A DNA stretch of 64,000 bases from Armatimonadota bacterium (GTDB lineage: Bacteria > Armatimonadota > SYMT01), in contig JAWLHY010000002.1 in assembly GCA_041690135.1 (NCBI GenBank), forward strand, positions 464,332-528,331, given 5' to 3'. Positions 5,850 through 56,329 of this stretch are shown here, in pieces. Each line of letters begins with the position of its first letter. Positions within the stretch are counted from its first letter, which is position 1. A program made the position numbers and the translations under genes. Under the pieces are notes generated by a model, which was given only the letters and a program-made list of their open reading frames with translations, did not search any database and was not told where the DNA came from.

Positions 5850-6680
5850 TTAATCCTCCACGAACTCGATCGGCGGGAGTTGCTCAATCACGCCCGCCTC
5901 GTGGCCGCGGGTGAGGAAGAGGCGGATGCTCTCGCGGCCGGCCTCGCCCATGTCGAGCGTCCAATCGTTGACGTACATCCCCACGAACTGGTCGGCCAAC
6001 TCGCGCTTCATGCCGCGGGCGAACTCCAGGGCGTAGTCCAGCGCTTCCTTCCGGTTCTCCAGCCCGTGCGCGATGCTGGCGTGGAGGATGCGCGAGATCT
6101 GGCGCATCCGTTCCGCGCCGAGGTCCTTTCGGATCACGTTCACGCCCAGGGGCAGCGGCAGTCCGGTCTCACCCTTCCACCACTGGCCCAGGTCGACCAC
6201 GGTCTTCAGGCCCAGCTCGGGGTGCATGAGCTGCCCTTCATGGATCAGGAGCCCTGCGGCGTACTTTCCTTCGGCCACGCCTTCCATGATCTCGTCGAAC
6301 GGCACCACCTCGTAGGCAAACTCGCCCAGCCAGAGGCGCAGGGCCAGGAAGGCGCTGGTGAGGGTGCCGGGGATGGCGATCTTCAGCTCCTTGAGCGCCT
6401 GCCGGGAGAGATTCTCGCGCGCCACGATCATCGGGCCGTAGTTATCACCCATGCTCGCGCCGTGGGGCAGGATGGCGTAGTTGTCGGCGATGTAAGCATA
6501 GCCGTGGACGGAGACGGCCGTGATGTGGAGGCGAGACTCCAGCGCCCAGCGGTTCAGCGTCTCGATGTCGCGCAGGATGTGCTCGAACTCGTAACCTTCT
6601 TCCTCGACCTTGTGCCGGGCGAGGCCGTAGAACATGAAGGCGTCGTCGGAGTCCGGGCTGTGTCCTAGTGTGATCTTCAC
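5850..6680 (-). CDS. mqnD: MqnD-family 1,4-dihydroxy-6-naphthoate synthase (futalosine menaquinone pathway)
   Basis: 'ITLGHSPDSDDAFMFY', 'DIETLN', 'GLLIHEGQL', 'LPLPLG', 'MYVN'; GTG 6680 overlaps the map stop codon. Confidence 0.85.
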   Translation of the reverse strand: MKITLGHSPDSDDAFMFYGLARHKVEEEGYEFEHILRDIETLNRWALESRLHITAVSVHGYAYIADNYAILPHGASMGDNYGPMIVARENLSRQALKELKIAIPGTLTSAFLALRLWLGEFAYEVVPFDEIMEGVAEGKYAAGLLIHEGQLMHPELGLKTVVDLGQWWKGETGLPLPLGVNVIRKDLGAERMRQISRILHASIAHGLENRKEALDYALEFARGMKRELADQFVGMYVNDWTLDMGEAGRESIRLFLTRGHEAGVIEQLPPIEFVED

Positions 6681-8341: not shown

Positions 8342-10429
8342 ATGAGTGCAAACACCCCCGCAGAAACTCCGTACCCGCCCCGGGAAGCGCTCCGGGTCCC
8401 GGAGCTTCCCACTCCGAGCTGGGGGCTGGGGGGCTGGCTGTACCGCGGGGGCTCGCCGGAGCATGCCGCCCACGTGGATGATCAGGCGCGGCCGTGGTAC
8501 CTCGTCCTGTGGCTCACCGGAGTCGACTACTTCTCCACCCTGGGTTACCAGCCGGGGATCGCGCTGCTCGCGGCGGGCGCGCTCTCTCCCGTGGCCACCC
8601 TCATCCTGATCCTGGTGACGCTCTTCGGCGCGCTGCCGGTCTACGCCCAGGTGGCCCGCCATTCCTACAGCGGCCAGGGGTCCATCGCCATGCTGGAGCG
8701 ACTCCTCTCCGGCTGGCGGAGCAAGCTCTTCGTGCTGGTGCTCCTCGGTTTTGCCGCGACCGATTTCGTTATCACCATGACCCTCTCCGCGGCCGACGCC
8801 GCCGTGCACCTGGTGGAGAACCCGCTGGTGGCGGAGTACCTGCACGGTGGTCAGTTGTGGATCACGCTGGCGCTCCTCGCCCTACTCGCGGGAGTTTTCT
8901 TGAAGGGGTTCCGGGAGGCGATCGGCCTGGCCGCCCTGATCGGCATCCCTTACATCCTGTTGAACCTGCTGGTGGTCATCCGTGGCGGCATCGAGATTGC
9001 CCGGCACCCGGAGTACCTCCAGGCCTGGACCTCCGCCCTCGCGGTGCAGGGGGATTGGAGCGCCGTGGTGCTGGTGGCGGCCCTGGTGTTTCCCAAGCTG
9101 GCACTGGGGCTCAGCGGGTTCGAGACCGGCGTGGCCGTTATGCCGCTGGTAAAGGGGGACCCAGACGACCGCCGCTGGCCCTTGCCGGTGGGGCGGATCC
9201 AGAGCAGCCGGAAGTTGCTGGCCGCCGCCGCGCTGATCATGAGCGTGATGCTGCTGACGACCAGCCTCGTCACCACGCTGCTGGTGCCGGAAACGGCCTA
9301 TCGAGAAGGGGGGCCCGCGGCGGGTCGAGTGATGGCGTACGTCGCCCACCGGCTGATGGGTGACTTCGTTGGTACCATCTACGACATCTCCACGATCCTG
9401 ATTCTCTGGTTCGCGGGCGCTTCGGCGATGGCGGGGCTGTTGAACCTCGTTCCCCGGTACCTGCCGCGCCTGGGAATGGCTCCCCGCTGGGTAGCCTACG
9501 TGCGGCCGCTGGTGTTGATTCTCTTTGCCATCAACGTGATCGTGACGCTCGTCTTCCGGGCGGAGGTGGAAGCGCAGGCGGGGGCCTACGCGACCGGGGT
9601 GTTGTTCCTGATCTTTTCGGCGTCCGTCGCCGTGACACTGGCGCTCTGGCGCGAGGCCCGTGAGGGCCCTTCCGCCGCCGTGACGCCGGCTCTGGCGGTG
9701 AAGGGGCTGGCGGAGCCGGAAGACCCAACCGGCATCCGCCCACGACGGTTCCCATGGGGAGCCATCTACTTCGGCGGCATCAGCCTGGTGTTCTTTTACA
9801 CCCTGGCCCAGAACATTCACGAGCGTCCGGACGGCATCATCATTGCCTCGGTCTTCATTGCCGGCATCATTCTCCTCAGCCTGATCTCCCGGTACCGCCG
9901 GTCCACGGAACTGCGGGTCGAGCGGATCGACCTCGCCGATGCGGAGTCGTGCCGGCTGTGGGAGTCCATGCTGGGCAAGAAGGTCAACCTGGTTCCGATC
10001 AAGCACTGTACGGCCGAGGGAATCCGGAGCAAGACCGAGGAGATCCGCAATTACTACCGGGTCGAGGGACCGCTTGCCCTCCTCCACGTGCGGCTCCGTG
10101 ACGACCGGAGCGACTTCTCCGGCGAGTTGTCCGTTGCGGTCACGCGTGTGGGCGACGACTATCTCATCCTGGTGGATGGCGCCGTCGCCATCGCCAACAC
10201 CATCGCCTACCTCAGTGAACTGCTCGACCCCATCAGTGTCTTCCTGGGGTTGACGCGCCAGAATACGGTGGCGCAGGCGATCCGCTTTCTCCTCTGGGGC
10301 GAGGGAGAGACCGGCATCCGGGTCTATGAGGTCCTCCTGCGACACTGGGAGGAGACCCCCGAGGACGACGTACGCCCGCGCATCTTCCTGATCAGTGACG
10401 GCTCCGAACCGGCAACGACCGGCGCTTAG
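8342..10429 (+). CDS. APC-family amino acid/cation transporter
   Basis: About 12 TM segments; 'LTGVDYFSTLGYQPGIA', 'FPKLALGLSGFETGV'. Confidence 0.88.
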   Translation: MSANTPAETPYPPREALRVPELPTPSWGLGGWLYRGGSPEHAAHVDDQARPWYLVLWLTGVDYFSTLGYQPGIALLAAGALSPVATLILILVTLFGALPVYAQVARHSYSGQGSIAMLERLLSGWRSKLFVLVLLGFAATDFVITMTLSAADAAVHLVENPLVAEYLHGGQLWITLALLALLAGVFLKGFREAIGLAALIGIPYILLNLLVVIRGGIEIARHPEYLQAWTSALAVQGDWSAVVLVAALVFPKLALGLSGFETGVAVMPLVKGDPDDRRWPLPVGRIQSSRKLLAAAALIMSVMLLTTSLVTTLLVPETAYREGGPAAGRVMAYVAHRLMGDFVGTIYDISTILILWFAGASAMAGLLNLVPRYLPRLGMAPRWVAYVRPLVLILFAINVIVTLVFRAEVEAQAGAYATGVLFLIFSASVAVTLALWREAREGPSAAVTPALAVKGLAEPEDPTGIRPRRFPWGAIYFGGISLVFFYTLAQNIHERPDGIIIASVFIAGIILLSLISRYRRSTELRVERIDLADAESCRLWESMLGKKVNLVPIKHCTAEGIRSKTEEIRNYYRVEGPLALLHVRLRDDRSDFSGELSVAVTRVGDDYLILVDGAVAIANTIAYLSELLDPISVFLGLTRQNTVAQAIRFLLWGEGETGIRVYEVLLRHWEETPEDDVRPRIFLISDGSEPATTGA

Positions 10430-10692
10430 GGTCTGTCAAGAAATTACCGTTTCGTTACGCCCAGCCGACGAAGGTTTACGCCCCGAGGGGGTGTCGGCTT
10501 CGCCATTTGTAGGCGTGAGTTTACTCGCCCAACTGTAGCGCCTGTTTTATGGCAGCCCCGTAGCGGGCGATTTCTTCCCGAATCGCCCGTAACCCTTTCC
10601 CCGGTTCGCCGGTCACAGGAGATAGCTAACGCAATCGGTGCAATGGATGCGGCATCCGGCATGCCGGCGCGACATGGGTTGGAGGGGGACTG

Positions 10693-13563
10693 GTGAAGTA
10701 TCGAAGCGCGTCAGTTCTTACGGGAGCGATCGCAGCCTCCGGGCTGCTCTCGGCGGCTCTGCCCGCGTCGGCAGCCCCGCGGCGCGTCTCCTCCAGCGCA
10801 CGCAAGGCGCCGGCAAGCCCCCGCAACTCCAAAGCGACAGCGCGGAAACCGGTGTCCCGGAAGCCCGCGCCTCGCAAGCGCACTCCACTGGCCATGCCGG
10901 CGGGGCCGGTACTGGAGGCGCTCCAGATCCAACCAGCAACCGTGACCCTGGAGGGCCGCCGTGCCCAGCAACTGCTGGTGGTCACCGGCCGGTACTCCGA
11001 CGGCTCCCTTCGGGACCTTTCCACGCAGGTGAAGTACGCCACGGACCAGGCGCGGGTGGCCGCCATCTCAGCCACGGGTCTCGTCAAACCCGTGGCGGAC
11101 GGGGAGACGGTGGTCAAGGCCTACTTGGGGAAGATCGGCGCCAAGGTTCCGGTAACGGTGGCCGCGGCGGCCGACTCGGCGCCTCCCAGCTTCATGCGGG
11201 ACGTGGTGCCGGTGTTGACCCAGGCCGGCTGCAACTCGCTCTCCTGCCACGGCTCGCCGGTGGGGAAGGCCGGGTTCAAGCTCTCGATGTACGGCTTCGA
11301 GCCGAACCTCGACTTCGAGGCGATCGTGAAGCAGGAGCGGTCCGTGCCGGAGAAGGGGAAGCGGATCGACCTCGCCGCGGCGAACCGCAGCTTGTTCCTG
11401 ATCAAGCCGACCATGCAGACGCCCCACCAGGGCGGCATGCGGTTCAAGATCGGCTCCCCGGAGTACCGCACCCTGGAAGCCTGGCTGAAGTCCGGCGCGC
11501 CGATGGACCCGCTCGACCCGCTGCCGGTCGTCACTCGCGTGGAAGTGCTGCCGGCGGAGCGGGTGCTGCCGAAGGCCGGCGCGAAGCAGCGCCTGGTGGT
11601 GATGGCGCATTACTCGGACGGCACGGCTGAGGACGTGACCCACAAGGCGATCTACGCCAGTAACGACGACTCGGTGGCGACTCCCGACCCGGAAGGCGTC
11701 ACCGCGGCCGGAGTGGGGGAGACGATCGTCCTCGCCCGCTACCTGGGGCGGGTCGGCACGGCGCAGTTCCTCATCCCCCAGCCGGATCCGGTGACGGACC
11801 GCGACTACACGGGTTTCCAGCCGGTCAACTTCATCGACCAGTTGACGCTGGCGAAGTGGAAGAAGATGCGGTTCGTCCCCTCCGAGCCCGCCACGGACGC
11901 CGAGTTCCTCCGCCGCGTCTCCCTGGACCTCACCGGCACCCTGCCCACCGCCGACGAGACGCGCGCGTTCCTGGCAGCGTGTGATGCGGAACGCCGGGTT
12001 GGTGCCTCGAGCAAAGCGCACGGGAGCAGTGGGGCCGGGGGGCCTGGTGAACAGAACAGGTACGGGTTGACAGAACGCAGGGGGGTAGGGGGGCAGAGAG
12101 CGGGGGAGAGACAGGCTCTGCGCACCGCAGCAGCCCGTGATCCCCAGGGTTCCCCTTACGCAATACGCAATACGCAATACGCAGCGGGTTCCCAATACGC
12201 AATACGTAACACGCAGTACGCAGACCCCGGAACCACCGCGCCCGCCCTGAAGACGCGTGCCAAGCTGGTCGAAGAACTCCTGAACCGCCCCGAATACGCC
12301 GACTGGTGGACCCTCTTCTGGGGCGACAACCTGCGGAACAACAGCCGCCTGATCCAGGCCAACGGCGCGAAAGCCTACCGGGACTGGATCCACAAGAACG
12401 TGGCGGAGAACCGGCCCTACAACGAGTTCGTCCGCGAACTGGTGACCGCCCGCGGCAAGAACTTCAGCAACGGCGCCGTGAACTTCTTCCGCGTGGCGCG
12501 CAACGCCCAGGAGCAGGCCGAGCAGACGGCGCAGGTCTTCCTGGGGGTCCGTCTCCAGTGCGCCAACTGCCACAACCACCCTTCGGAGAAGTGGACCCGC
12601 ACGAGCTACCACCGGTTCGCGGCCCTGTTCTCGAAGACGACTTCGAAGAACGTCGGCAAGGGGGAGGTCGAGATCCTGGCCAACCCCAAGGGGTCCTACC
12701 GCAGCCCCATCACCAACCGTCCCCTGGAGCCGGCCGTGCTGGAGGACAGCCCGCCCGACATGCCGGAAGACCGGGACTACCGCGAGGTCCTGGGCGAATG
12801 GCTGGTAAGCCCCGAGAACCCGCTCTTCGCCCGCAACCTGGTGAACCGCGTCTGGGCGCAGCTCTTCGGGAAGGGGATCATCGACCCCGTCGACGACGTC
12901 CGCGTCACCAACCCGCCGGTAAACGAGGCGCTCCTCGACGCGCTGGCCCGCGATTTCGTGGCGCACAACTACGACGTGAAGCACCTGCTGCGGACCATCG
13001 TCAGCTCGCGCACCTACCAGCTATCCGTCCGGGCCAACCGGTGGAATGGGAAGGACCGCCAGAATTTCTCACGGGCCTACCACCGCCGGCTCAAGGCGGA
13101 AGCCCTGCTGGATGCGTACTGCCAGGTAACGGACCAGCCGGAGAGCTACCGCGGCCACCCGGCCGGAACCCGCGCCATCCAGTTGGTCGACAACCGGGTC
13201 GCCAGTTACTTCATGGACATCTTCGGCCGGCCCCGGCGCGAGGTGGTCTGCGCCTGCGAGCGAGAGGAGACGGCCACCCTGACCCAGGCCCTCCACCTGA
13301 TCAACGGCGACACGCTCAACCGGAAGATCGCCGCCTCGAAAGGGAGAGTCGCGAGCCTGCTGGACCCCGCCGCCAACCCGCCGTGGTCCGATGCAGCCGT
13401 GGTCGAGGAGCTGTACCTTGGGTCGCTCAACCGGTTCCCTACGCCGGAGGAGAGTGCGGAGGCGGTCCGGCAGATCGAGGCCGCCGGCAAGGAGCGCCGC
13501 GCCGCTGTTGAGGACCTGCTCTGGGTCCTGCTCAATTCCACGGAATTCCAGTTCAATCACTGA
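10693..13563 (+). CDS. DUF1549/DUF1553 (PSCyt2/PSD1) protein with Ig-like (Big_2) domains; carries an in-frame insertion at ~11977-12249
   Basis: Signal peptide, 'AGCNSLSCHG', '[15 protein letters not shown]', 'QCANCHNHP', 'NPLFARNLVNRVW', C-terminal 'LLNSTEFQFNH'. Confidence 0.92.
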   Translation: MKYRSASVLTGAIAASGLLSAALPASAAPRRVSSSARKAPASPRNSKATARKPVSRKPAPRKRTPLAMPAGPVLEALQIQPATVTLEGRRAQQLLVVTGRYSDGSLRDLSTQVKYATDQARVAAISATGLVKPVADGETVVKAYLGKIGAKVPVTVAAAADSAPPSFMRDVVPVLTQAGCNSLSCHGSPVGKAGFKLSMYGFEPNLDFEAIVKQERSVPEKGKRIDLAAANRSLFLIKPTMQTPHQGGMRFKIGSPEYRTLEAWLKSGAPMDPLDPLPVVTRVEVLPAERVLPKAGAKQRLVVMAHYSDGTAEDVTHKAIYASNDDSVATPDPEGVTAAGVGETIVLARYLGRVGTAQFLIPQPDPVTDRDYTGFQPVNFIDQLTLAKWKKMRFVPSEPATDAEFLRRVSLDLTGTLPTADETRAFLAACDAERRVGASSKAHGSSGAGGPGEQNRYGLTERRGVGGQRAGERQALRTAAARDPQGSPYAIRNTQYAAGSQYAIRNTQYADPGTTAPALKTRAKLVEELLNRPEYADWWTLFWGDNLRNNSRLIQANGAKAYRDWIHKNVAENRPYNEFVRELVTARGKNFSNGAVNFFRVARNAQEQAEQTAQVFLGVRLQCANCHNHPSEKWTRTSYHRFAALFSKTTSKNVGKGEVEILANPKGSYRSPITNRPLEPAVLEDSPPDMPEDRDYREVLGEWLVSPENPLFARNLVNRVWAQLFGKGIIDPVDDVRVTNPPVNEALLDALARDFVAHNYDVKHLLRTIVSSRTYQLSVRANRWNGKDRQNFSRAYHRRLKAEALLDAYCQVTDQPESYRGHPAGTRAIQLVDNRVASYFMDIFGRPRREVVCACEREETATLTQALHLINGDTLNRKIAASKGRVASLLDPAANPPWSDAAVVEELYLGSLNRFPTPEESAEAVRQIEAAGKERRAAVEDLLWVLLNSTEFQFNH

Positions 13564-13575
13564 AGGACTTACCAC

Positions 13576-14895
13576 ATGAGAAACCTGGTTCTTAATCGCC
13601 GGGCTTCGGCGAACTGCGAGGGAGTGAGTCGCCGGGACCTGCTGCGGGTCGGCACGCTGGGGGCATTCGGGCTGTCGCTGCCGGAATTCCTCCGGATGCG
13701 CCAGGCGGCCGCGGACAGCAAGAAGGCGGTCCGCGACCGCAATTGCATCCTGCTGTTCATGAACGGCGGCCCCTCGCACATCGATACCTGGGACCCCAAG
13801 CCCGACGCGCCCGCCGAGTACCGGGGCGAGTTCAATCCGATCTCCCCCAGCGGCGCGGAGTTCCAGATCAGCGAGCACCTGCCCCGGATGGCGGAGGTCG
13901 GCAACCGGTTCTCCGTGGTGCGGTCGCTCACCAGCCCGGAGGGAAGCCACGAGCGGGCCTGCCACTACATGCTCACCGGCTACCGGATCCTGCCGACCCT
14001 GGAGTATCCCGCCTACGGCTCCGTGATCCTGAAGGAGAAGGGCTTCAAGTCGAGCCTGCCGCCGTACATCGCCATCCCCTCCACCCTGCGCGGCGGCACT
14101 CCCGGCTACCTCGGCACGGTTTACCAGCCGTTCTCCGTCGGCAGCCCGAGCAGCAAGGATGGCTCGATCAGCGTCCGGGACGTGAATTCACCCGTGGGAG
14201 ATGCCCGGATGCGTGCCCGCGCCGAGCTTCTCCGCCGCCGCGACGCCGCCTTCCGGAACGAGGACCCGGACGGCACCCTGGCCACGCTGGACGAGTACTA
14301 CCAGCGCGCCTACGACCTGGTGAACTCTTCGGCCGCGAAGAAGGCGTTCGACCTCTCAACCGAGCCGGACGCGCTGAAGGACCGCTACGGCCGGCACAGC
14401 TTCGGGATGGGATGCCTGCTGGCCCGCCGCCTGATCGAGGCGGGGACCCGCTTCGTCACGATCTCGCTCGGCGGCTGGGACACTCACAGCAAGAACTTCC
14501 CGAACCTGCGCGATAAGCAGTTGCCGCCGCTCGACGCCGGCTTCGCCTCCCTGATCGAGGACCTTTCCGACCGCGGCCTGCTGGACGACACGCTGGTCGT
14601 CTGGATGGGCGAGTTCGGCCGGACCCCCAAGATCAACAAGAACGCCGGCCGCGACCACTACCCCAAGTGCCAGAGCGTGGTCTTCGCCGGCGGCGGCACC
14701 CCGGGCGGCCAGGCCATCGGCCGGAGCGACAAAACGGCGAGTCTCCCCGAGGAGCGCCCCGTCACCCCGGAAGACATGGCCGCCACGATCTACAGCATCC
14801 TCGGCATCGACGGCCACAAGACCTACACCACCTCCACCGGCCGTCCCATCCGTATTGCGGAGAAAGGTGAAGTTATCAACGAGTTGACAGGCTAA
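13576..14895 (+). CDS. DUF1501 family protein
   Basis: 'SRRDLLRVG', 'GGPSHIDTWDPKP', 'GWDTH', 'GEFGRTP', 'GRDH'. Confidence 0.95.
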   Translation: MRNLVLNRRASANCEGVSRRDLLRVGTLGAFGLSLPEFLRMRQAAADSKKAVRDRNCILLFMNGGPSHIDTWDPKPDAPAEYRGEFNPISPSGAEFQISEHLPRMAEVGNRFSVVRSLTSPEGSHERACHYMLTGYRILPTLEYPAYGSVILKEKGFKSSLPPYIAIPSTLRGGTPGYLGTVYQPFSVGSPSSKDGSISVRDVNSPVGDARMRARAELLRRRDAAFRNEDPDGTLATLDEYYQRAYDLVNSSAAKKAFDLSTEPDALKDRYGRHSFGMGCLLARRLIEAGTRFVTISLGGWDTHSKNFPNLRDKQLPPLDAGFASLIEDLSDRGLLDDTLVVWMGEFGRTPKINKNAGRDHYPKCQSVVFAGGGTPGGQAIGRSDKTASLPEERPVTPEDMAATIYSILGIDGHKTYTTSTGRPIRIAEKGEVINELTG

Positions 14896-14923
14896 CCGTA
14901 CTCCTAACTGCGTTTCGCCCGTG

Positions 14924-14969
14924 GGCTCCCCCTCTCTGCGTCGGAGAGGGGGCGGGGGGTGAGGTTACT
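14924..14969. repeat. Palindromic dispersed repeat (CTCCCCCTCTC...GAGAGGGGG...GGGGTGAGG), copy 1
   Basis: Nearly identical copy at 25512-25558 (one indel). Confidence 0.85.
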
Positions 14970-15073
14970 TTGGTCACCGCAGCCGTTAAAGGTAAACCCC
15001 ATTCCATCACTCGCCCATTCGCCCAGCCTCGGTCCCCATCAATTCGCGTCCATTCGTCCCATTCGCGGATCGC

Positions 15074-15889
15074 TCAGGCCCGGAAACCCAGCAGCCGCGC
15101 GAGGTTGAGTCCCTTGACCTTGGCCCGGTCCGCTTCGGAGTACTCCGGCATGTGCGCGTCCACGATGCTCGGGCTACCGCTCCCCCACACCAGGCGGTCC
15201 GGCCCGAACTCCCGGATCACCCGCCGGGTGAAGGGCCGGGCGCTTGCGTAATGGGGGGCGTCGGTCGCGAAGTGGTTGAGGCCGGAGAGCTTCATATAAA
15301 CGTTGGGGAGAGACGCCAGCTCGAGCACGTCCGCGTACTCCACCGCGTCCCCCATGTGCGGTTCGGCCAGGTGGTCGATCAGGACGGTGCACCCTGGAAA
15401 CGCCCGGATCGCCTCCCCGGCTTGCCGGGCATAGTTCGGCCCGATGTGCAGCTCCACGATGAGGCCCAGGTCCACCGCCGTCCCCCAGAGCGCCCGCACG
15501 CCGGTGTCCGCGAAGCTGTGCAGGTACATCTCCTTGCCGCGGTGAGCGTGGAACCGCATGGCGACCATCCGCGGCTCCCGCGCCGCGAGATCCCGCAGCT
15601 TACGCGGGGCGTCCGGGTCGTCGGGGTAGTAGAGGAAGGTGCCGCGCAGGCGCTCCGGCTCACGTTCCAGGCATTCCAGAATCAGCCGGTGGTCGTCCCC
15701 GTAGGGCTCCGGGTGCACGATCACCGCCCGGTCGATCCCCTCCCGCTCCATCCGCTCCAGGTAGGCGCCCAGCGGGTCCGCGGGTTGCTCCGACACGTCC
15801 GGTCGGTACGCGGCACGAGGGTGGAATGGGTATCGCTCCAGGTCCGGGCTGAAGATGTGAGCATTCCATTCGATGATCATCGAGCTCAT
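15074..15889 (-). CDS. Amidohydrolase family (Amidohydro_2-like) protein
   Basis: 'IIEWNAHIF', 'LIDHLAEP', 'NVYMKLSG', 'FGPDRLVWGS'. Confidence 0.88.
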   Translation of the reverse strand: MSSMIIEWNAHIFSPDLERYPFHPRAAYRPDVSEQPADPLGAYLERMEREGIDRAVIVHPEPYGDDHRLILECLEREPERLRGTFLYYPDDPDAPRKLRDLAAREPRMVAMRFHAHRGKEMYLHSFADTGVRALWGTAVDLGLIVELHIGPNYARQAGEAIRAFPGCTVLIDHLAEPHMGDAVEYADVLELASLPNVYMKLSGLNHFATDAPHYASARPFTRRVIREFGPDRLVWGSGSPSIVDAHMPEYSEADRAKVKGLNLARLLGFRA

Positions 15890-15985
15890 AGACTACCTTT
15901 TGTTTCTCTCCGTTCGATCCAAACTCGCGCAACCGGTCGCACGACGGGGTGTCAGAAGCGCCGTCACTTCCTGGAGAGTGTTCCA

Positions 15986-18900
15986 ATGGCGGAGCGCGAA
16001 GGCACAACCTGGCGAACGGCCGCGGCGGCAGGCGTGATCCTGGTGCTTCCGGCCTCGCTGGCCCTGGTTTCGGGCGCCCGAGCCGCGGCCCCGGCGGTCT
16101 CTCCAAGCGCTTCTCCTTCGCAGCCGCGGACGGCGCCTGTTGCCCCGGTAGATTTCAACCGCGACGTTCGCCCGCTCCTCTCCGAAAACTGCTTCACCTG
16201 CCACGGCCCGGACGCGAACCAGCGACAGGGCAACCTGCGGCTTGACCTGCGCGAGGGGGCGCTCGCGGACCTGGGTGGGCGCCGGGCCGTGGTTCCCGGC
16301 CAGCCGGCCCGAAGCGAGCTGCTGCGCCGGCTCCTGACCCACGACGCCGACCTGCGGATGCCGCCGGCCGCCACGGGAAAGCGCCTCACGACGGCCCAGG
16401 TGGAGACGCTCCGGCGCTGGATCGCGCAGGGAGCGAAGTGGCAGCAGCACTGGTCGCTGATCCCGCCGGTCCGGCCGCCGCTGCCCGCGGTGAAGCAGAA
16501 GAGTTGGCCCCGGAACGCCCTGGATACCTTCGTGCTGGCGCGCCTGGAGCGGGAGGGCTTGAAGCCGTCCCCGGAGGCGGACCGCGCCACGCTGATCCGG
16601 CGGGTGTCCCTGGACCTGACCGGTATCCCGCCCACGCCGCGGGAAGTGGACGCGTTCCTGGCCGACCGCTCCCCGGATGCCTATGAGAAGGTGGTCGGCC
16701 GCCTGCTGGCCTCACCCCGGTTCGGCGAGCGGATGGCGGCGCGGTGGCTGGATGCGGCGCGGTATGCGGACACCAACGGTTACCAGAGCGACGGCGAGCG
16801 GCACATGTGGCGCTGGCGGGACTGGGTCATCGACGCCTACAACCAGGACATGCCGTACGATCGCTTTACGGTGGAGCAGATCGCCGGGGACCTCCTGCCC
16901 AACGCCACCCTGGAGCAAAAGATCGCCAGCGGCTTCAACCGGAACCACCGGGGCAACGGCGAGGGCGGCATCATCCCGGAAGAGTACCTGGTGGAGTACG
17001 CGGTGGACCGGGTGGAGACCACCAGCACCGTATTCCTGGGGCTCACCATGGGCTGCGCGCGCTGCCACGACCACAAGTACGATCCGCTCACCCAGCGCGA
17101 CTTTTACCGGTTCTACGCCTACTTCAACAACATCCCGGAGCGCGGGCGGGCGAACAAGTTCGGCAACTCGCCGCCGATGATCCCGGCCCCCACGCGCGAG
17201 CAACAGGCCGGCCTCACCCGGCTGGAGCAGCGGCTGGCGCGGGCGGAACAGCAGTTCCAGGAGCTCTCGAGCCAGCGCACGGCACAACAGCAGGCTTGGG
17301 AACGGACCCTGGCCGGAGCGGAGATCCTCGACTGGAGCCCGACCGATGAGCTGGAATGCCGGTTCGGTCTCGACGGTGACGCCCGACCCGAGGGGATTCC
17401 GCCGCAGCGTGGCCCGCTCCAGCCGCGCTTCGTGGATGGGGAGGCGGTGTTCGGTCCCGGTAGGGTCGGCCGGGCGCCGCAGTTCGATGGGCGCCGCTTC
17501 GTCGAGGCGGGTAACCTGGGGGACTTCGGCTTCTACGACCGGTTCACGCTGGCAGCCTGGTTCCGGGCCGACGACGCACAGGGGGGCACGATCCTCTCCC
17601 GGATGACCGATACGGCTCGGGCGGACGGCTACAGCGTGGTGCTGAAGGACGGCCGAATCCAGGTGAACCTGGTGAAGCGCTGGCTCGACGACGCTCTGCG
17701 ATTGGAAACAGAGACCGCCGTGCGTCCGGGCGAGTGGCATCACGTGGCCGTGACCTACGACGGCACGCGCGTGGGGACGGGGGTGAAGGTCTACCTCGAC
17801 GGGGTGCCGGTGAAGACGCGCCTCCTCCTCGACGAGTTGAACCAGTCGTTCAACAATCAGGAACCGCTGCGCATCGGGGCGGGCGGCGGGCCGAATGGGC
17901 GCTTCCGGGGCCAGATCGACGAAGTGCACGTCTACCGCCGCGTCCTCGACCCGGAAGAAGCGGCGATGCTGGCCGTCCCGGAGACGGTGACCGCCATTAC
18001 CACCGTGCCGGCGCGGATGCGGAACCCCTCGCAGGTCGCCAAGATCGCCAACTGCTACCTGGAGCGATACGCCCCCGAGCCGCTGCGCAAGAACCGCGAG
18101 GAAGTGATCCGGCTGCGCAAGGAGCGGGCCCGGATGATCGACTCCTTCCCGACCGTGATGGTGATGGAAGAGAAGCCGGTCCCGGCGGAGACGTTTGTCC
18201 TGATCCGCGGCCAGTACGACAGGCCGGGTGAAAAGGTCACGCGCGGGGTGCCGGCCAGCCTCCCTCCGCTGCCCGGAGCGGGCCGGAACGACCGCCTCGC
18301 CCTGGCGCGCTGGCTCGTCAGCCCCAACCACCCGCTCACCGCCCGCGTCGCCGTCAACCGCACCTGGCAGATGCTCTTCGGCGCCGGCCTGGTGAAAACC
18401 GCGGAAGACTTCGGCTCCCAGGGCGCCCTGCCCTCGCACCCGGAACTGCTGGATTATTTGGCAGTTCGCTTTGCCGGAGGCGCCGTGGAGGACAAGCCGG
18501 CTACGGTGACCCAAGCGCAAGGGGGTAAGGGTGCAGGGCGGAGGGGAGAGGGAGAGGCGGTTGCCCAGAACCGGTACGGCTTGGCCGCACGCAAGGACCC
18601 AGGGGAGAAGGGAGGTAGGGGTAACCGAAATCTGCGAACCGCAGCTGCTTCTGACCCCAGAGGTTCGCATTACCGGGTGCCCACTGGGCGACGCAATACG
18701 CAATACACGGCTGATTCGCGATCATCCTTCATCCTTCATCCTTCATCCTTCCGAACAGGCCCCCGATCCCCAGCCCCCAACCCCGGCGAAGGCCTGGGTT
18801 GGAGCACCAAGGCGCTCCTCCGCCTCATCGTCACCAGCGCCACCTATCGCCAGTCGTCGCGGGTGACGCCGGATCTGCTGGAGCGAGATCCCGAGAACCG

Positions 18901-19543
18901 GCTGCTGGCGCGGGGTCCCCGCTTCCGGTTACCAGCGGAGATGGTGCGGGACCAGGCGCTGACGGCGAGCGGGCTGCTGGTGGAGAAGGTGGGAGGCCCC
19001 TCCGTGAAGCCCTACCAGCCGCCGGGGATCTGGAAAGACCTGGCGGGCGGCGAGGACTACCAGCCCGGAACCGGGGACGATCTCTATCGCCGCAGCCTCT
19101 ACACCTTCTGGAAGCGGACCGCGCCGCCTCCCGCGCTCACGGCGTTCGACGCGGCGGGACGGGAAACATGCGTGGTGCGGGAGTCCCGCACCAACACCCC
19201 GCTCCAGGCGCTCAACTTGATGAACGACGTGACCTATGTGGAAGCGGCGCGCGCCCTGGCCCAGCAGGTGTTGCGGGAGGGTCCCGCCACCGCGGAAGAG
19301 CGGTTGAGCCGGGTCTTTCGCCGCGTCCTGGTGCGCCGGCCGCGCCCGGATGAGCGCCGGGTCCTCCGGGAGGCGTTCGAGGCGCAGTTAAGCAGGTTCC
19401 GCAGCGATCGGAAGGCCGCGGCCGCCCTGGTCGCCGTGGGAGAGTCCCGGGCCGACCCGCGCCTCGATCCGGCCGAGCTGGCTGCCTACACCACCGTTGC
19501 GAGCCTGGTGTTCAACCTGGACGAAGCGGTCACCAAGGAATGA
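15986..19543 (+). CDS. PSCyt1/DUF1549/LamG/DUF1553 protein; carries an in-frame insertion at ~18473-18796
   Basis: '[20 protein letters not shown]', '[10 protein letters not shown]', '[12 protein letters not shown]', LamG-like '[10 protein letters not shown]...GQIDEV', 'NTPLQAL'. The ORF-track start at 15152 overlaps the amidohydrolase, so ATG 15986 is preferred. Confidence 0.92.
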
Positions 19544-21039
19544 GGAACACGCCGATGGAGGGGGATCCGCGTGCGGAGCTTGCAAGGCTCTTGAGCCGCC
19601 GGCAGTTGTTCGGCCAGGCAGGGTCCGGTGTCGGCCTGGCCGCGCTCGCCGCCTTACTCCAGAACGAGGGTCGCACGGCGCCGGCGCAACCGAAGGTCCA
19701 AGCTCAGACTGCCGCTGCTCCACCTGGTATGACGGCAGCCACCCACCCGGCGCGGGCCAAGCGGGTCATCTACCTGTTCCAATCCGGCGCGCCCTCGCAG
19801 ATGGACCTCTTCGACTACAAGCCGAAGCTCCGGGACCTGCGCGGGACCGAGCTGCCGGACTCCGTGCGCCAGGGCCAGCGGCTGACAGGGATGACCTCGC
19901 GCCAGGAAAGCTTTCCGGTGGCCCCCAGCCGCTTCGCCTTCGCGCAGCACGGCAAGAGTGGCGCCTGGATCAGCGAGTTGATGCCGCACACGGCGCGGCT
20001 CGCGGACGAGCTGTGCTTCGTGAAGTCGATGCACACGGAGGCGATCAACCACGACCCGGCCGTCACCTTCTTCCAGACGGGAGCGCAACTGGCGGGGAGG
20101 CCCAGCATCGGCGCGTGGGTGGCGTACGGTCTCGGCAGCGAGAACCGCGACCTTCCCGCCTTCATCGTGCTGGTTTCGCAGGGCACCGGCAATCCCAACG
20201 ACCAACCCCTCTACGACCGCCTGTGGGGGAGCGGCTTCCTTCCCACGCGCTACCAGGGGGTGAAGCTGCGGGCCGGGAACGAGCCGGTCCTGTACCTGTC
20301 GAACCCCGCGGGGCTGTCCGGCGCTGCCCGGCGGCGCTTCCTCGATGACCTCGCCCGGCTCAACCAGCTCAAGCTCAAGGAAGCCGGCGACCCCGAGATC
20401 CAGACGCGGATCGCCCAGTACGAGCTGGCGTTCCGCATGCAGGCCTCCGTGCCGGAGCTCACCGACGTCTCCCAGGAGCCGGAGCGGGTGTTCGAACGGT
20501 ACGGACCGGAAGCCCGTAAGCCGGGCACCTTCGCCCGGAACTGCCTGCTGGCCCGGCGGCTGGCCGAACGCGGCGTGCGGTTCATCGAGCTCTTCCATCG
20601 CGGCTGGGACCAGCACACCTCCCTGCCGAAGCAGATCGCCGGCCAGTGCCGCGACACGGACCAACCCTCGGCCGCCCTCCTCCTGGACCTCAAAGAGCGC
20701 GGGCTCCTCGACGACACGCTGGTCGTGTGGGGAGGCGAGTTCGGCCGCACGGTCTACTGCCAGGGCACGCTCACCGCGACCGACTACGGCCGGGACCATC
20801 ACCCCCGCTGCTTCACCGTCTGGCTGGCGGGTGGAGGCGTGAAGCCGGGCATCTCCTACGGCGAGACCGACGACTTCTCCTACAACATCGTGAAGGACCC
20901 GGTGCACGTCCACGACCTGCACGCCACGCTCCTCCACCTGCTGGGGGTGGAGCACACAAAGCTGACCTACCGCTTCCAGGGCCGCGACTTCCGCCTCACG
21001 GATGTCCACGGAGAACTTGTACGCCCCATCCTGGCATGA
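19540..21039 (+). CDS. DUF1501 family protein (Tat-like RR signal)
   Basis: 'SRRQLF', 'KRVIYLFQSGAPSQMDLFDYKP', 'GWDQH', 'GEFGRT', 'GRDHHP'. Confidence 0.95.
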   Translation: MRNTPMEGDPRAELARLLSRRQLFGQAGSGVGLAALAALLQNEGRTAPAQPKVQAQTAAAPPGMTAATHPARAKRVIYLFQSGAPSQMDLFDYKPKLRDLRGTELPDSVRQGQRLTGMTSRQESFPVAPSRFAFAQHGKSGAWISELMPHTARLADELCFVKSMHTEAINHDPAVTFFQTGAQLAGRPSIGAWVAYGLGSENRDLPAFIVLVSQGTGNPNDQPLYDRLWGSGFLPTRYQGVKLRAGNEPVLYLSNPAGLSGAARRRFLDDLARLNQLKLKEAGDPEIQTRIAQYELAFRMQASVPELTDVSQEPERVFERYGPEARKPGTFARNCLLARRLAERGVRFIELFHRGWDQHTSLPKQIAGQCRDTDQPSAALLLDLKERGLLDDTLVVWGGEFGRTVYCQGTLTATDYGRDHHPRCFTVWLAGGGVKPGISYGETDDFSYNIVKDPVHVHDLHATLLHLLGVEHTKLTYRFQGRDFRLTDVHGELVRPILA

Positions 21040-21118: not shown

Positions 21119-21594
21119 CCTGAACGTTCACCCCCACCGGAGGGCCTACATACCCAATGCCCGCATGTTTACCCCCACAGGGGGGCCGAACGCCTGCATG
21201 CCAAAGGCCTGACTACCTGAACACCTAACTGATGTTATTGGTAAATTCGATCGCGGGCAGTTGGACTGCCCGCGAAATTCTTCGTCCGCAGTTGCACTGC
21301 GGAAGCCTGTGGTCTCGCTGTCGTCGCGGCTTACCCGCATCGCCAATGCCGGCACCGGGTCGGGAGCGACGCAGTGCAACTGCGCACGAAGTGTTCCGGC
21401 TGCAGTGCAACTGCAGCCGATCCTGGTGACGATCATGTTCAGGAGCTGGTTGCCTGAATGCCTGAACACCCAACGTTTACCCCCCATAGGGGGGCCTGGA
21501 CGCTTAGCCCCACAGGGAGCCCAACGTTTACCACCCGAGGGGTGGCCGAACACCTGAATACCGACCACCTGAACACCGAACACCTGAACACCTA
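21119..21594. repeat. 8-mer (CCTGAACA-like) degenerate array containing five GTTTA-hairpins and a central inverted-repeat element
   Basis: cctgaaca/ccgaaca/cctgaatg units at 21119-21228 and 21451-21594; hairpins at 21125, 21166, 21474, 21501 and 21525. Confidence 0.85.
21249..21422. mobile_element. MITE/REPIN-like element with 53-bp imperfect terminal inverted repeats, each holding two GCAGTTGCACTGC hairpins
   Basis: 21249-21301 aligns without gaps to the reverse complement of 21370-21422. Confidence 0.7.
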
Positions 21595-45945: not shown

Positions 45946-46350
45946 ATGGACAACTACTCCGATATCGGCTCCCTTCAGATCCGCGTCCTCCGCATCCTCT
46001 GGCAGCGCGGGGATGGGACGGTTCACGAGGTACTGGAAGCCTTTGCGCCCGGCGAGCGGCCGGCCTATACCACCATTCTCCACGTGCTGCGCACGCTGGA
46101 GCGACGCGGTCTGGTGGAGCACACCAAGGAGCAACGCCAGCATCGTTACCATCCCCTGGTCCAGGCGGATGAGGTCGAGCTCGGAGTTGTCCACTCGCTG
46201 CTCTCCCGCATCTTTTCCGGTTCGGCCGAACGCCTCGTGGCCCGTCTTCTGGAGGCCACCCCGCTGGACCGGAAGGAGCTGGAGGGAATCCGGCAACTGA
46301 TCGCCGTGCATGAGCAGGATGGCCGGACCACGAACGGGGGGAACGGCTGA
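45946..46350 (+). CDS. BlaI/MecI/CopY family transcriptional repressor
   Basis: 'LQIRVLRILWQRG..TVHEV..PAYTTILHVLRTLERRGLV..RYHP..FSGSAERLV'. Confidence 0.93.
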   Translation: MDNYSDIGSLQIRVLRILWQRGDGTVHEVLEAFAPGERPAYTTILHVLRTLERRGLVEHTKEQRQHRYHPLVQADEVELGVVHSLLSRIFSGSAERLVARLLEATPLDRKELEGIRQLIAVHEQDGRTTNGGNG

Positions 46351-48179
46351 TGGGGATCGGCATCACCCCCCCGGAGTTGGCCGCATGGGAAGCGGTGGCG
46401 CGCTACTTGCTTTCCTCCTGGCTCGTGCAGGCCACCCTGCTTCTCGGCGCCGGCCTGCTTCTGGCACGGCTCCCTCGCCTGGGCCCCGCCCAGCGGCATG
46501 GTGTGCTGGCGACGGCGCTTTTCCTGGCGACCCTCTCCCCGGTGGCGCTGCTACTTCCGCTGCCGTACCGCGCTACGGTCCCGGCGCCGCGGGAGCTTCG
46601 CGTCGTTGGTAGGCCGTTACGTGCAGCCGGATCTCGTCCGGCCCTGGGAGTACGGACGGCCGCGGGGGCTACGACTCTTCGGCCCGGGAAAGCTCGTCTT
46701 CCTGTCGCACCCGCCTTGGCCCCGGCCCTCGCGTGGCTCCAGCAGTATCCCGCCCTGGCGCTCGCGGCGGGCTGGCTGCTCCTCGTGGCGCTGAAGGGCG
46801 CGCTCTTGGGTGTTTCCGCACTCCAGGTAAGCACCTGGCGGAGGGGCGGACGTCCCCTCGACCGCGACCGCCTCTACCGCGCCTGCGGGTACCGGTTGGC
46901 GGACATCCCCATCCTGGAGACGCGGGGAGTGGGGGTGCCGAGTGTGATCGGAGTCCGGCGGCCCACGATCCTCCTGCCGGCGGATCTGGCGGGAGAGGTC
47001 GACGACGCCACCCTGGGCCAGATTCTCCTCCATGAGGAAGGGCACGTCCGCCGGCGGGATCCGCTCCTCCGGCTGCTGGCGGCCCTGGCGGGCTTGCTCC
47101 TTTTCTGGCATCCGCTGGCGGCGTGGGTGCGGCGCCGGATGGAACAGGCCGCGGAAGACGCCTGCGACCTCCACGTGCTCCGGCGGGGAACGGATCGCGC
47201 CGCCTATGCCCGGACACTGCTCTCCGTCCTGGAGTTGGCCCTTACCGGCCGGTCTCGCGGGCTGGCCTGCCGGCTCGGCCGCACGGGCGGCGAGCTGCGC
47301 CGGCGGGTGAGCCACATCCTCACGCATCCGACCACCGCTTCTCCGGCCATGACCGGTCTCGCGGCACTCGCGGCGGTACCCGTCGTCGGCGCCGCCCTTC
47401 TTCTGGACGCCGGCCCACGCCCCACCTTCCGGTATACCGCCCGGTCCGCCTCAAACTCTCCCGTCTCTACCCTTCATCGCCGCACCTCCACTCTTCACTC
47501 CCTCCCCGCCGCCCTCCCATCATCCACCCTCCACGCTCCCCCCTCCACCCTCCCGCCTCCACGCTCCCCCCTCCACTCTCCGCCCAACCCCCTCCCCCCT
47601 CCTCTCCCGATCCTGGGCGGGCGAGAACCGGTAGCCGTGCTCGCCGCGCCGCGCGCCAGCGAACCGCGGGCGGACCATCTCACGGTCTTCGTGCTCGATA
47701 TCTCCAGCAGCATGGCGGCCTATCAGCAAGATGCGCGACGTCAGCTCCTGCTGCGCCTGGAGGCCTTGCCGCCCGGAGACCGGTTCAACGTGGTCGCGTT
47801 TAACTCGCGGGTACTGCCTTACGCGTCGAGCCCCGTCTCACCCACGCCGGAGACTCTCGCCTCCGTGCGCGAGTGGCTGAACGCCCTGCCGGCGGAGACG
47901 GGCACCAACCTGGTCGCGGGGCTGGAGCATGCGCTGGCGCAGGAGGAGGTGACTTCGGTGGTGCTGTTCTCGGAGGACAACCTCTTGCGGGAGATCGGCG
48001 CCGCGCCGGAGTTCCTGGCGGTGGTGGAGCGGGCCAACCGTTTCCACGCGCGGGTCCTGGCGGTCGCGCCGGAGGGTCTCCCGGCCGAGGCCGGACAAAG
48101 TGCGTTCACCTCCCTGCCGGAACCGGCGCAGCAGAGGGCCCAGGCAAACCAGCGCCAGGGCGAGGCGGAGTTGCCGTAA
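46350..48179 (+). CDS. BlaR1-type M56 metallopeptidase with C-terminal vWA domain
   Basis: 'ILLHEEGHVRRRD...FWHPL...EDACD'; vWA 'VFVLDISSSM...GDRFNVVAF...GTNL'; heptamer-repeat linker at 47455-47612. Confidence 0.88.
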   Translation: MGIGITPPELAAWEAVARYLLSSWLVQATLLLGAGLLLARLPRLGPAQRHGVLATALFLATLSPVALLLPLPYRATVPAPRELRVVGRPLRAAGSRPALGVRTAAGATTLRPGKARLPVAPALAPALAWLQQYPALALAAGWLLLVALKGALLGVSALQVSTWRRGGRPLDRDRLYRACGYRLADIPILETRGVGVPSVIGVRRPTILLPADLAGEVDDATLGQILLHEEGHVRRRDPLLRLLAALAGLLLFWHPLAAWVRRRMEQAAEDACDLHVLRRGTDRAAYARTLLSVLELALTGRSRGLACRLGRTGGELRRRVSHILTHPTTASPAMTGLAALAAVPVVGAALLLDAGPRPTFRYTARSASNSPVSTLHRRTSTLHSLPAALPSSTLHAPPSTLPPPRSPLHSPPNPLPPPLPILGGREPVAVLAAPRASEPRADHLTVFVLDISSSMAAYQQDARRQLLLRLEALPPGDRFNVVAFNSRVLPYASSPVSPTPETLASVREWLNALPAETGTNLVAGLEHALAQEEVTSVVLFSEDNLLREIGAAPEFLAVVERANRFHARVLAVAPEGLPAEAGQSAFTSLPEPAQQRAQANQRQGEAELP

Positions 48180-50625: not shown

Positions 50626-50657
50626 TTCCGTTTGGAAGGACCCAAGAGGAGAAGTCG

Positions 50658-51287
50658 ATGCTGGAATTGTTCTTGAAGGCAGGCTGGGTGGCGTGGCCGC
50701 TCGCGATCTGCTCCGTGCTGTCGGTCGCCGTCATTCTGGAGCGGCTCTACACGCTGGGGCGCCTCCGGACGCTGGAAGAGCGGGCCTTCATGATCCTGCA
50801 ACTCGCGCTGGAGAAGGGGGACGACTCGGCCCTGCGCGATCCCCAGATCGCCGGCGCGCCGGTGGCCCAGGTAATGGACTCGCTCAGTGAGATGCGAGGC
50901 GCCAGCGAGGACTCGATCCAGACGGCCGCCGAGATCTCCATCTCGATGCAGCGCCTGCGCCTGCGTCGCTACCTCGGCACCCTTGCCACGGTCGGCAGCA
51001 CCGCGCCCTTCATCGGGCTGTTCGGGACCGTGCTCGGCGTCATGCGCGCCTTCCAGGCCATGAGTCAGAGCACCCTCAGCGGGGAAGCGATGGCCGCGGG
51101 TATCTCCGAAGCGCTCAGCGCCACCGCCCTCGGCCTCCTCGTCGCCATCCCCGCGGTGATGGCCTACAACTACTTCACCGGCCAGGTGCAGGCGTCCGTG
51201 CTGCAGATCCACGGGCACGTCGCGCGCCTCGCCCCGCTGCTCAAGCATCTCCACCGCGAGAGCCGGGAGGTGTCCAGTGCACGGTAG
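50658..51287 (+). CDS. MotA/TolQ/ExbB proton-channel protein
   Basis: 'LATVGSTAPFIGLFGTVLGVM', 'GISEALSATALGLLVAIPA'. Confidence 0.95.
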   Translation: MLELFLKAGWVAWPLAICSVLSVAVILERLYTLGRLRTLEERAFMILQLALEKGDDSALRDPQIAGAPVAQVMDSLSEMRGASEDSIQTAAEISISMQRLRLRRYLGTLATVGSTAPFIGLFGTVLGVMRAFQAMSQSTLSGEAMAAGISEALSATALGLLVAIPAVMAYNYFTGQVQASVLQIHGHVARLAPLLKHLHRESREVSSAR

Positions 51288-51705
51288 GCACCTGGCGGAC
51301 GACGAGCCGATGGCGGAGATGAACATGATCCCGCTCATCGATATCGCCCTCACGCTGGTCATTATCCTCATGGTGACCACGGCATTCATCAAGCACCCGG
51401 GCGTCTCCCTCAAGCTGCCGGAAACGGTGACCCGCGAGGGCGCGCCCGAGTCGAACCGGGACACGGTGATCATGGTCCAGGCCGACGGCACGCTCCACCT
51501 GGACGGCGTGAAGAAGGACCCTGCCGAGATCCGAGGCTACCTCGTCCAGGTCGCCGCGAAAAACAAGGAAGCCCGCGTCCTGGTGAAGGGCGATCGCAAC
51601 GTCGCCTATGCCTCCGTGATGGACGTGATGGACCTGGTGCGCCAGGCCGGCCTCACCCGGGTCGTCCTACCCACCGACCCGAAACGAACGGCCAGCAGGC
51701 AGTGA
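51277..51705 (+). CDS. ExbD/TolR biopolymer transport protein
   Basis: '[21 protein letters not shown]', '[12 protein letters not shown]'. Confidence 0.95.
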
Positions 51706-51952
51706 GCAGTGGCCAGCAGGCAGTAGGCGGTAGGCAGAAGGCAGAAGGCAGTGGGCAGCAGGCAGTGGGCGGTAGGCCGACGGCAGCGAGCAGTAGGTGG
51801 CGAGCAGTAGGCGGTAGGCGGTAGGCAGTAGGCAGTAAAGCGGTGGGCAGTAGCCCAACACGTCCATTCCGTCTAATCCGACCCATCCGTCCGCTCCCCG
51901 AACACCTGAACACCCGAACACCTGAACACCCGAACACCCGAACACCTGAATG
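51692..51952. repeat. Composite tandem array: about 23 x 7-mer (GCAGTAG), 4 x 9-mer (CGTCCATTC-like), 7 x 8-mer (CCYGAACA)
   Basis: 7-mers 51692-51853, 9-mers 51861-51896, 8-mers 51897-51952. Confidence 0.9.
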
Positions 51953-56249: not shown

Positions 56250-56329
56250 TCCTACTCTTACTCTTACTCTTACTCCTACTCTTACTCCTACTCTTACTCC
56301 GGCCCCTGGCCCCCGGCCCCCAACCCCCA
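56250..56329. repeat. Hexamer (CTCTTA/CTCCTA)n followed by heptamer (GGCCCCC)n array directly before an ATG
   Basis: Seen directly in the sequence. Confidence 0.85.

Follow-up and report, generated by a model that had tools for sequence, protein, structure and literature searches.

We analysed a 64,000-nt stretch of contig JAWLHY010000002.1 of an Armatimonadota bacterium (assembly GCA_041690135.1, positions 464,332 to 528,331), hereafter the window, in which two paralogous genes for PSCyt2/PSD1 (DUF1549/DUF1553) proteins are each interrupted in frame by a repeat-built insert. The inserts occupy different places, site A within PSCyt2 in gene 1 and site B within PSD1 in gene 2, and both contain a copy of the same dispersed core of about 150 nt next to arrays of tandem heptamers (Table 1). 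Their limits, set by alignment to profile hidden Markov models (HMMs) built from paralogues of the source genome itself, fell within a few codons of those proposed in an initial annotation made from the letters of the window (11977-12249 and 18473-18796). As that annotation had also stated, each gene is empty at the site filled in the other, and the conserved Gln and Leu codons of the core are 66 nt apart in both copies (CAG at 12052 and 18566, CTG at 12118 and 18632). The homology of the two cores is more than chance, because a genome-wide nhmmer search with the first core as the lone query retrieved the second at E = 3.6e-8. The heptamers described earlier were recovered by Tandem Repeats Finder (TRF) as TACGCAA x9.9 and TCATCCT x4.3, and the G-rich runs were seen as well. 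Likewise, the reported atypical codons are reflected in the GC content of the three codon positions (GC1/2/3), which departs from the flanks in both genes: 0.68/0.66/0.62 in the gene 1 insert vs 0.64/0.45/0.94 in its flanks, and 0.68/0.64/0.61 in the gene 2 insert vs 0.71/0.51/0.89.

Table 1. Host genes, inserts and repeat features of the two loci (window coordinates; C2 coordinates are those of the contig)
Feature	Position	Strand	Description	Source
Host gene 1	10693..13563	+	956 aa; Big_2 + PSCyt2 (DUF1549, split match) + PSD1 (DUF1553)	ORF, Pfam
Site-A insert, gene 1	11983..12243	+	87 codons, after PSCyt2 state 50	hmmalign, own-genome PSCyt2 HMM
~150-nt dispersed core, copy 1	12035..12182	+	peptide QNRYGL...LRTAAA...YAIRNTQY; HMM positions 2-149	nhmmer (C2:476366-476513), E = 6.4e-33
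TACGCAA heptamer array, gene 1	12157-12222	+	9.9 units, inside a 39-nt tandem duplication of 2.0 copies (12147..12223)	TRF
Host gene 2	15986..19543	+	1185 aa; PSCyt1 + PSCyt2 + Laminin_G_3 + PSD1 (split match)	ORF, Pfam
Site-B insert, gene 2	18482..18796	+	105 codons, after PSD1 state 64	hmmalign, own-genome PSD1 HMM
~150-nt dispersed core, copy 2	18551..18706	+	HMM positions 4-147	nhmmer (C2:482882-483037), E = 2.7e-26
TCATCCT heptamer array, gene 2	18722..18751	+	4.3 units, 100% matches, then C-rich 3' arm to 18796	TRF, sequence

The two inserts belong to a large set. In the source assembly (9.1 Mb, 25 contigs, 65% GC), iterative nhmmer with the core gave 105 matches, 27 of which cover at least 95 of the 149 model positions; 25 of these 27 long copies lie within same-strand open frames of 799-1515 aa. 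PSCyt2 and PSD1 occur together in 77 open reading frames (ORFs). When inserts of at least 8 aa were counted, site B (PSD1 position 64) was filled in 41 of the 77 hosts with 13-129 aa and site A (PSCyt2 position 50) in 18 with 10-120 aa, which makes 59 inserts and 10,287 nt. A single open frame is kept in all 38 genes whose Pfam match to PSD1 is split. The core is carried by about 22 host genes, and 19 of the 41 site-B inserts are without it and filled by other repeats. Some inserts are probably missing from these counts, because the repeats break the assembly.

The inserts are mosaics in which heptanucleotide units in tandem are combined with a G-rich arm on the 5' side, a C-rich arm on the 3' side and sometimes the core. 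In the usual order, a left end resembling (T/A)QGS.GAGSKGEG is followed by the G-rich arm and, optionally, by one to three 'QNRYGLAERRGA..KGAGE' units; the right part passes from an 11-residue unit through an ACGCAAT (YAIRNTQ) or a TCATCCT (SSFILHP) array into the C-rich arm (SPQPPTPGPAEGL), and the TCATCCT plus C-rich module of gene 2 is also found in other site-B inserts. Arrays of GGGGTCA/TGACCCC are among those that build inserts, together with CAATTGT, TCATCCT and ACGCAAT, and other inserts consist of CAATTGT (QLSIVNS), GGCAGAA, CGGAACC or CTTCAAC arrays, or of hexamers. The encoded peptides repeat every seven residues, since three heptamer units make 21 nt or 7 aa, and the G-runs of the sense strand recur at a 7-nt period. 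In several short inserts, inverted heptamer arrays make up a near-perfect hairpin, as in the 72-nt insert at C10:25876 (minimum free energy -61.5). The left- and right-end modules are common to sites A and B; therefore the whole cassette, and not the core alone, is common to both.

The two sites themselves resemble each other, with a consensus of (F/Y)LA.. ahead of the insert and K.L..L...S..Y behind it, and we infer that they are equivalent helix-loop-helix turns. In the AlphaFold2 model of the gene 1 protein, which has a mean predicted local distance difference test score (pLDDT) of 68, insert residues 443-514 have a pLDDT below 50 and form a coil between helices 420-442 and 519-530, and at the empty site B a short turn joins helices 742-757 and 762-770. 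The gene 1 insert is accordingly modelled as a disordered segment.

The cores do not follow the genes that carry them. The initial annotation had pictured a portable cassette at two sites of paralogues, and this is borne out by core identities of 0.689 for A-B pairs vs 0.705 for A-A and 0.692 for B-B pairs (0.69-0.70 throughout), flank identity being 0.54-0.62. The core was more similar than both flanks in 78 of the 91 B-B pairs and in 6/6 A-A pairs, and core identity did not vary with flank identity (r = 0.02); by blastn, insert segments were 82-91% alike while their flanks were 64-77% alike or not alignable. On the host tree (FastTree, 77 hosts, match states only, branch supports not examined), core presence took 21 Fitch changes for 22 carriers vs a shuffled mean of 19.3, and site-A occupancy took 12 vs 16.3. 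Gene 1 is a member of a 23-gene clade that never carries a site-B insert (empty in 23/23, with site A filled in 12/23); the remaining 54 host genes hold 41 site-B and 6 site-A inserts. Of the 153 core pairs, the two with the highest identity (0.873 and 0.844) join genes at most 25 kb apart that belong to different host subclades, and pairs not within 60 kb on one contig all score 0.78 or less. This is only a hint of local copying of the core (permutation p = 0.036, n = 6 near pairs).

Alignment of orthologues, which the initial annotation had proposed as a way of defining empty sites, did reveal them. Site A is empty in 9 of the 13 aligned gene 1 homologues, at 43-66% identity (listed as P0003, P0004, P0006-P0012 and P0016), and three of the 13 have short different inserts or the same insert. 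Among ten gene 2 homologues, site B is empty in four and holds different, unrelated inserts in six, two of which encode short C-rich/G-rich palindrome-like peptides; a heptamer-like 'SSFVIR' insert was present at site A in two gene 2 homologues. Four proteins of other lineages (P0145, P0238, P0157 and P0240) have their own short C-rich/G-rich or heptamer-like inserts at sites A and B and also inserts in further loops, e.g., between 'DLLP' and 'TLEQ' in P0145. PSD1 matches split at positions 64-65 are also numerous in three genomes of the same family, and the related genome G005 has 17 site-B inserts of 47-60 aa with the same architecture built from other heptamers. A homology of the core to these G005 inserts, suggested by eye, was not confirmed by nhmmer, which gave no match at E up to 10. 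A DNA search of 40 relatives recovered no core; it recovered only ACGCAAT arrays, in G005. There they often form inverted pairs 110-170 nt apart (e.g., C83:6134-6165(-) and 6304-6329(+)), which suggests hairpin-like intergenic elements.

The repeats also extend beyond the PSCyt2/PSD1 family. Among the strong tandem repeats of the genome (TRF score at least 50), period 7 ranks first with 134 arrays and period 8 second with 91. By a crude GC3-based gene call, 201 of the 394 non-redundant heptamer arrays fall between genes, 58 at sites A/B, 15 in other parts of the hosts, 108 within further coding ORFs and 12 at ORF edges; 48 lie deep within other long ORFs. Eight of ten tested array-bearing ORFs matched Pfam families, namely valyl-tRNA synthetase (ValRS), PutA, the carbamoyl-phosphate synthase large chain (CarB), PurH, a radical-SAM/SPASM protein, an FAD oxidase/Fe-S protein, DUF5682 and WGR/DUF4132; in ValRS, CarB, PutA and others the heptamer modules are in frame. 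The 3' module of the core, with its ACGCAAT arrays, is intergenic in 41 of 64 non-core matches. The earlier description of a module of secreted cytochromes stands for the two paralogue sites and is too narrow in the confinement it implied. As to strand, frame and location, the core keeps to one strand and one frame, and the 3' module and the arrays are mostly intergenic. Within genes, ACGCAAT arrays run 24 times in sense and never in antisense, and GGCAGAA arrays 13 times in sense and never in antisense. Both units are stop-free in either orientation, and a filter on peptide composition is a plausible cause of this orientation.

We then asked how far the encoded peptide is constrained. Mean GC1/2/3 is 0.658/0.636/0.630 in the 59 inserts vs 0.689/0.485/0.847 in 1.2 kb of flanks, and GC3 is below that of the flanks in 57/59. 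Diversity is nearly flat across the codon positions of the 18 full core copies (0.288/0.304/0.333), in which the proportions of synonymous and non-synonymous differences (pS and pN) are 0.38 and 0.28; pN/pS is 0.75 over 91 B-B core pairs and 0.76 over 6 A-A pairs. The comparison of copies recommended in the initial annotation thus lends no support to selection on the peptide. The count of 7 synonymous vs 3 replacement differences made there for two blocks of the window pair was correct, and these blocks had been picked because their amino acids agree; across the full length of the aligned core, the same pair has 16.5 synonymous vs 30.5 non-synonymous changes (pS 0.44, pN 0.29). In the nearest gene 1 orthologue, P0002, which is 84% identical and comes from an independent assembly, the insert is at the same site, with 46/78 residues the same and 16 gap columns, vs 284/329 and 395/437 residues in the flanks. 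P0002 has one unit fewer, and its 13-aa gap matches the 39-nt in-frame tandem duplication of the window, so that, judging from this alignment, insert length appears to be still changing. Constraint at the peptide level is weak, and the amino-acid-level selection claimed earlier is not upheld by the pN/pS values, the nearly flat codon-position diversity, the low GC3 or the faster change relative to the flanks between orthologues. We regard the inserts as probably repeats at the DNA level rather than a selected peptide domain.

The explanation that we favour, with a probability of roughly 60%, is a selfish repeat resembling Rickettsia palindromic elements (RPEs) or simple sequence repeats (SSRs), tolerated where loops are permissive and spreading as copies from locus to locus. 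What it builds on are the anatomy, copy numbers, strand and frame, composition and weak protein-level constraint, together with the host-tree incongruence, the empty orthologous sites and the in-frame copies in unrelated genes. The heptanucleotide arrays would probably grow and shrink via slippage and small tandem duplications and, often as a G-rich 5' plus a C-rich 3' arm, would join the dispersed core to give composite cassettes. These would then be copied among loci, most likely by non-allelic gene conversion or template switching between paralogues or neighbouring genes, and less likely by a transposition activity. A coding copy would persist only in a permissive surface loop or linker, with the frame kept, no stop codons and a polar disordered peptide. 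The helix-loop-helix turns of PSCyt2 and PSD1 would be the main coding sinks because they are permissive and multiplied 77-fold in the genome. The copying mechanism, the neutrality of the inserts and the translation and toleration of their peptides are the conjectural part of this scheme.

Several observations weigh against this explanation. The pN/pS of the flanks is similar (0.69-0.84) and the paralogues are near saturation, so that pN/pS and codon-position diversity discriminate poorly. Nine Y1_Tnp (PF01797) matches were found, none of them beside heptamer arrays when adjacency was defined as a period-7 array of TRF score at least 34 within 1.5 kb, and a mobilising enzyme was not found. No target-site duplication could be defined in the five filled/empty sister pairs compared, their flanks sharing only 59-80% identity, and blastn of the inserts gave no copies more than 91% alike and hence nothing to indicate that they moved recently. 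Hosts with a filled site B group together on the tree, with 11 Fitch changes vs a shuffled mean of 25.6, and a single old insertion with later losses could account for much of this pattern. Lastly, the core is almost restricted to a single gene family, in that 37 of the 41 core matches starting at HMM position 60 or earlier fall in PSCyt2/PSD1 genes. Within it the strand is exclusive (43/43 coding matches to the core or 3' module at sites A/B are on the host strand) and the peptide frame is the same across the 18 aligned full copies, despite an open antisense frame in 22 of the 27 long ones. Stop codons alone therefore fail to explain the orientation of the core; its copies must share a common origin, have been copied directionally or be selected for peptide composition.

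These last features keep alive, at low probability, readings in which the inserts serve a function or a programmed variation. One is that the core is an interaction, cleavage or modification tag, selected for its sequence and moved between loops because it is useful. Its strand and frame, an orientation that stops do not force, the near-confinement to exported PSCyt2/PSD1 proteins, the blocks YGL, RTAA and GS.YA.RN that recur among core copies, and the 7:3 count in the two picked blocks would all be expected of such a tag. On the other hand, the pN/pS of 0.75 over 91 pairs, the excess of non-synonymous changes in the window pair, the GC3 of 0.63 vs 0.85 in the flanks and the faster change of the insert than of its flanks between orthologues are at odds with it. 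Moreover, nearly half of the site-B inserts (19/41) have other repeats in place of the core, the same site in G005 is filled by sequence without a core match, and the insert is predicted to be disordered. A known protein domain was rejected, as neither insert peptide matched any Pfam family at E up to 0.01. We therefore consider a selected tag unlikely.

An evolved variable region is similarly doubtful. Here, a dedicated mechanism would copy cassettes (a conserved core, a GGGTTCG-type site and slippage-prone arrays) between paralogues and nearby genes and so diversify an exposed disordered loop in exported PSCyt2/PSD1 proteins by the dozen; in several phyla, different repeat families would use these landing sites.

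In a simpler form of programmed variability, the heptamer arrays would act as contingency sites, where steps of 7 nt switch genes off or steps of 21 nt vary an exposed loop. The arrays are slippage-prone, contigs break at them, insert length ranges from 13 to 129 aa among paralogues, and gene 1 and its orthologue differ by one in-frame length step of 39 nt. However, the frame is intact in all 38 split PSD1 genes, the arrays are short with imperfect units (69-100% matches), and the same arrays occur in the housekeeping ValRS and CarB, where switching off would harm. Such a role seems improbable to us.

The clustering of site-B occupancy would also suit an old, vertically inherited loop, that is, an ancestral insertion that preceded the expansion of the family and was kept by mRNA structure, a G-quadruplex or a regulatory site. 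Most site-B inserts have their end modules in common, the same site is filled in related genomes, and the sense-strand G-runs have their regular period. In addition, GGGTTCG, the only motif common to the inserts of the core-bearing genome and of G005, is enriched in both genera (15/59 inserts vs 0.9 expected in the source genome and 10/17 vs 0.25 expected in G005). Against such a loop stand the presence of the same core at a second, non-homologous site, its unclustered distribution on the host tree, a core identity unrelated to that of the flanks and the fast evolution of the insert between orthologues. The RNA tests speak against it as well: whole-insert folds of the two window copies did not differ from shuffles (z = +0.13 and -0.76), RNAalifold of 18 cores gave -3.2 kcal/mol with no compensatory pairs and no conserved structure, and the duplex of 5' and 3' arms was no better within copies than across them (-43.9 vs -43.8 kcal/mol, p = 0.46, no co-variation). 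We consider such a loop improbable as well. Without covarying structure, and with no Rfam match in window 11800-19000 at E up to 1 and no ARAGORN match in window 10000-20000, a structured RNA, a self-splicing element and a tRNA-derived element were likewise rejected.

That repeats were misjoined into genes during assembly is scarcely credible, although the repeats do break it: contigs C14 and C15 both begin with the same inverted pair of ACGCAAT arrays (C14:146-293 and C15:147-295), and C14 stops within a PSD1 gene just past site B, at model position 71 (C14:235199-235741). Each of the 59 inserts keeps the frame of the long ORF around it, the independent assembly of P0002 has the same insert at the same site, and a contig from another run, an RNA library, crosses the right insert/host junction of gene 1 (12124-12315, 17 differences and 4 gaps). 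Since DNA carry-over is possible in that library, the contig is a weak hint that the insert is retained at the RNA level. Public sequencing runs matched the window over small shares only, largely through conserved fragments of other organisms, and left most of the insert uncovered.

Among known systems, the RPEs named in the initial annotation were judged the best analogy available. They are described as elements of about 150 bp found in frame in unrelated Rickettsia genes, which encode a conserved peptide apparently compatible with the host fold, and are regarded as selfish DNA (PMC10969869). The present repeat resembles them as a dispersed element of about 150 nt in many copies, in frame and in one predicted peptide frame, and its heptamer and arm modules also enter unrelated housekeeping genes. 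It differs in that its core is almost confined to two fixed loops of one paralogous family (37/41), in that the cassettes are mosaics of heptanucleotide arrays, and in that the window copies are not significantly palindromic by the fold scores given above, although some short inserts are near-perfect hairpins. The host is also an unrelated 9.1-Mb bacterium and not a reduced intracellular one, and the likeness drawn here is one of description.

In many prokaryotes, long SSRs most often consist of heptanucleotide repeats, which are mostly intergenic and under-represented in coding DNA, with slippage as the proposed origin (PMC4679880, PMC4692102); examples are cyanobacterial heptamer repeats, GGGAATC of Xanthomonas and TAACTGA of Beggiatoaceae (PMC4692102, PMC4679880). 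The arrays described here are similar in the dominance of 7-nt units, their mostly intergenic location, the occasional inverted pairs and the G-rich units with G-quadruplex potential. Unlike those SSRs, 58 of them fill two loops of one protein family in frame and they are joined to a non-tandem 150-nt core. The initial annotation did not recognise the element as a described family. The core indeed has no Rfam or Pfam match, but heptanucleotide SSRs and in-frame coding repeats are already known as kinds.

Transposable elements of the miniature inverted-repeat type (MITEs), which are reported to form occasional in-frame fusions with host ORFs (PMC10969869), and repetitive extragenic palindromes with their hairpin-forming doublets (REP/REPIN) are also small, non-autonomous, dispersed repeats with inverted arms. 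In contrast to both, the present repeats have no definable target-site duplication, no identified parent insertion sequence and no adjoining Y1 transposase. A MITE was rejected, as the generic G-rich and C-rich arrays of the arms lack the specificity of terminal inverted repeats and a duplicated target site could not be defined, and REP/REPIN elements mobilised by a REP-associated tyrosine transposase (RAYT) were rejected for want of a Y1 transposase gene beside the repeats. Phase-variable contingency loci (PMC4679880, PMC4692102) likewise have slippage-prone repeats inside genes for exported proteins; here, however, units of 7 nt make up short, imperfect arrays, and 0/38 split genes are out of frame. 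Within open-access coverage, which leaves subscription papers outside, neither repeat inserts in DUF1549/DUF1553 proteins nor heptamer repeats of Planctomycetes or Armatimonadetes were the subject of any paper that we found.

Rickettsia provides the best-known case of selfish DNA lying in frame within genes, and the phenomenon looks larger in scale here, with 59 inserts in one family and further copies in core enzymes. Built from heptanucleotide arrays, these inserts offer a natural system for the entry and survival of short DNA repeats in coding sequence, for the birth of disordered protein segments and for finding dispensable loops in the abundant, uncharacterised PSCyt2/PSD1 proteins. A practical effect is that the inserts split Pfam matches and break assemblies.

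Beyond the two host genes, a gene of about 440-500 aa lies 3' of each (window 13576-14895 and 19540-21039); both may be DUF1501-like, DUF1501 being the usual partner of PSCyt/PSD genes. Other arrays of the window include a TCCACCC array of 11.4 units (47523-47602), in frame in ORF 46350-48179 (609 aa), where it encodes a P/S/T/L-rich peptide. Between the divergent ORFs 50526-51491(-) and 51964-53934(+), at 51693-51950, a 161-nt heptamer array of about 23 CAGTAGG/GGCAGAA-like units is followed by a period-8 array, CCCGAACA x6.8, and further period-8 arrays are located at 21546-21593 (GAACACCT) and 59027-59088 (CCTGAACA). At the 5' end of ORF 56216-57811, a hexamer array, TACTCT x7.8, runs into C-rich heptamers (56250-56351), and the same style of hexamer plus C-rich arm was also seen in some site-A inserts. 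Outside the window, the region C11:11600-18000 of the source genome holds eight partial matches to the core or module C among many heptamer and octamer arrays, with clear coding composition only in ORF 14731-16212, and could represent decayed genes or a store of cassettes.

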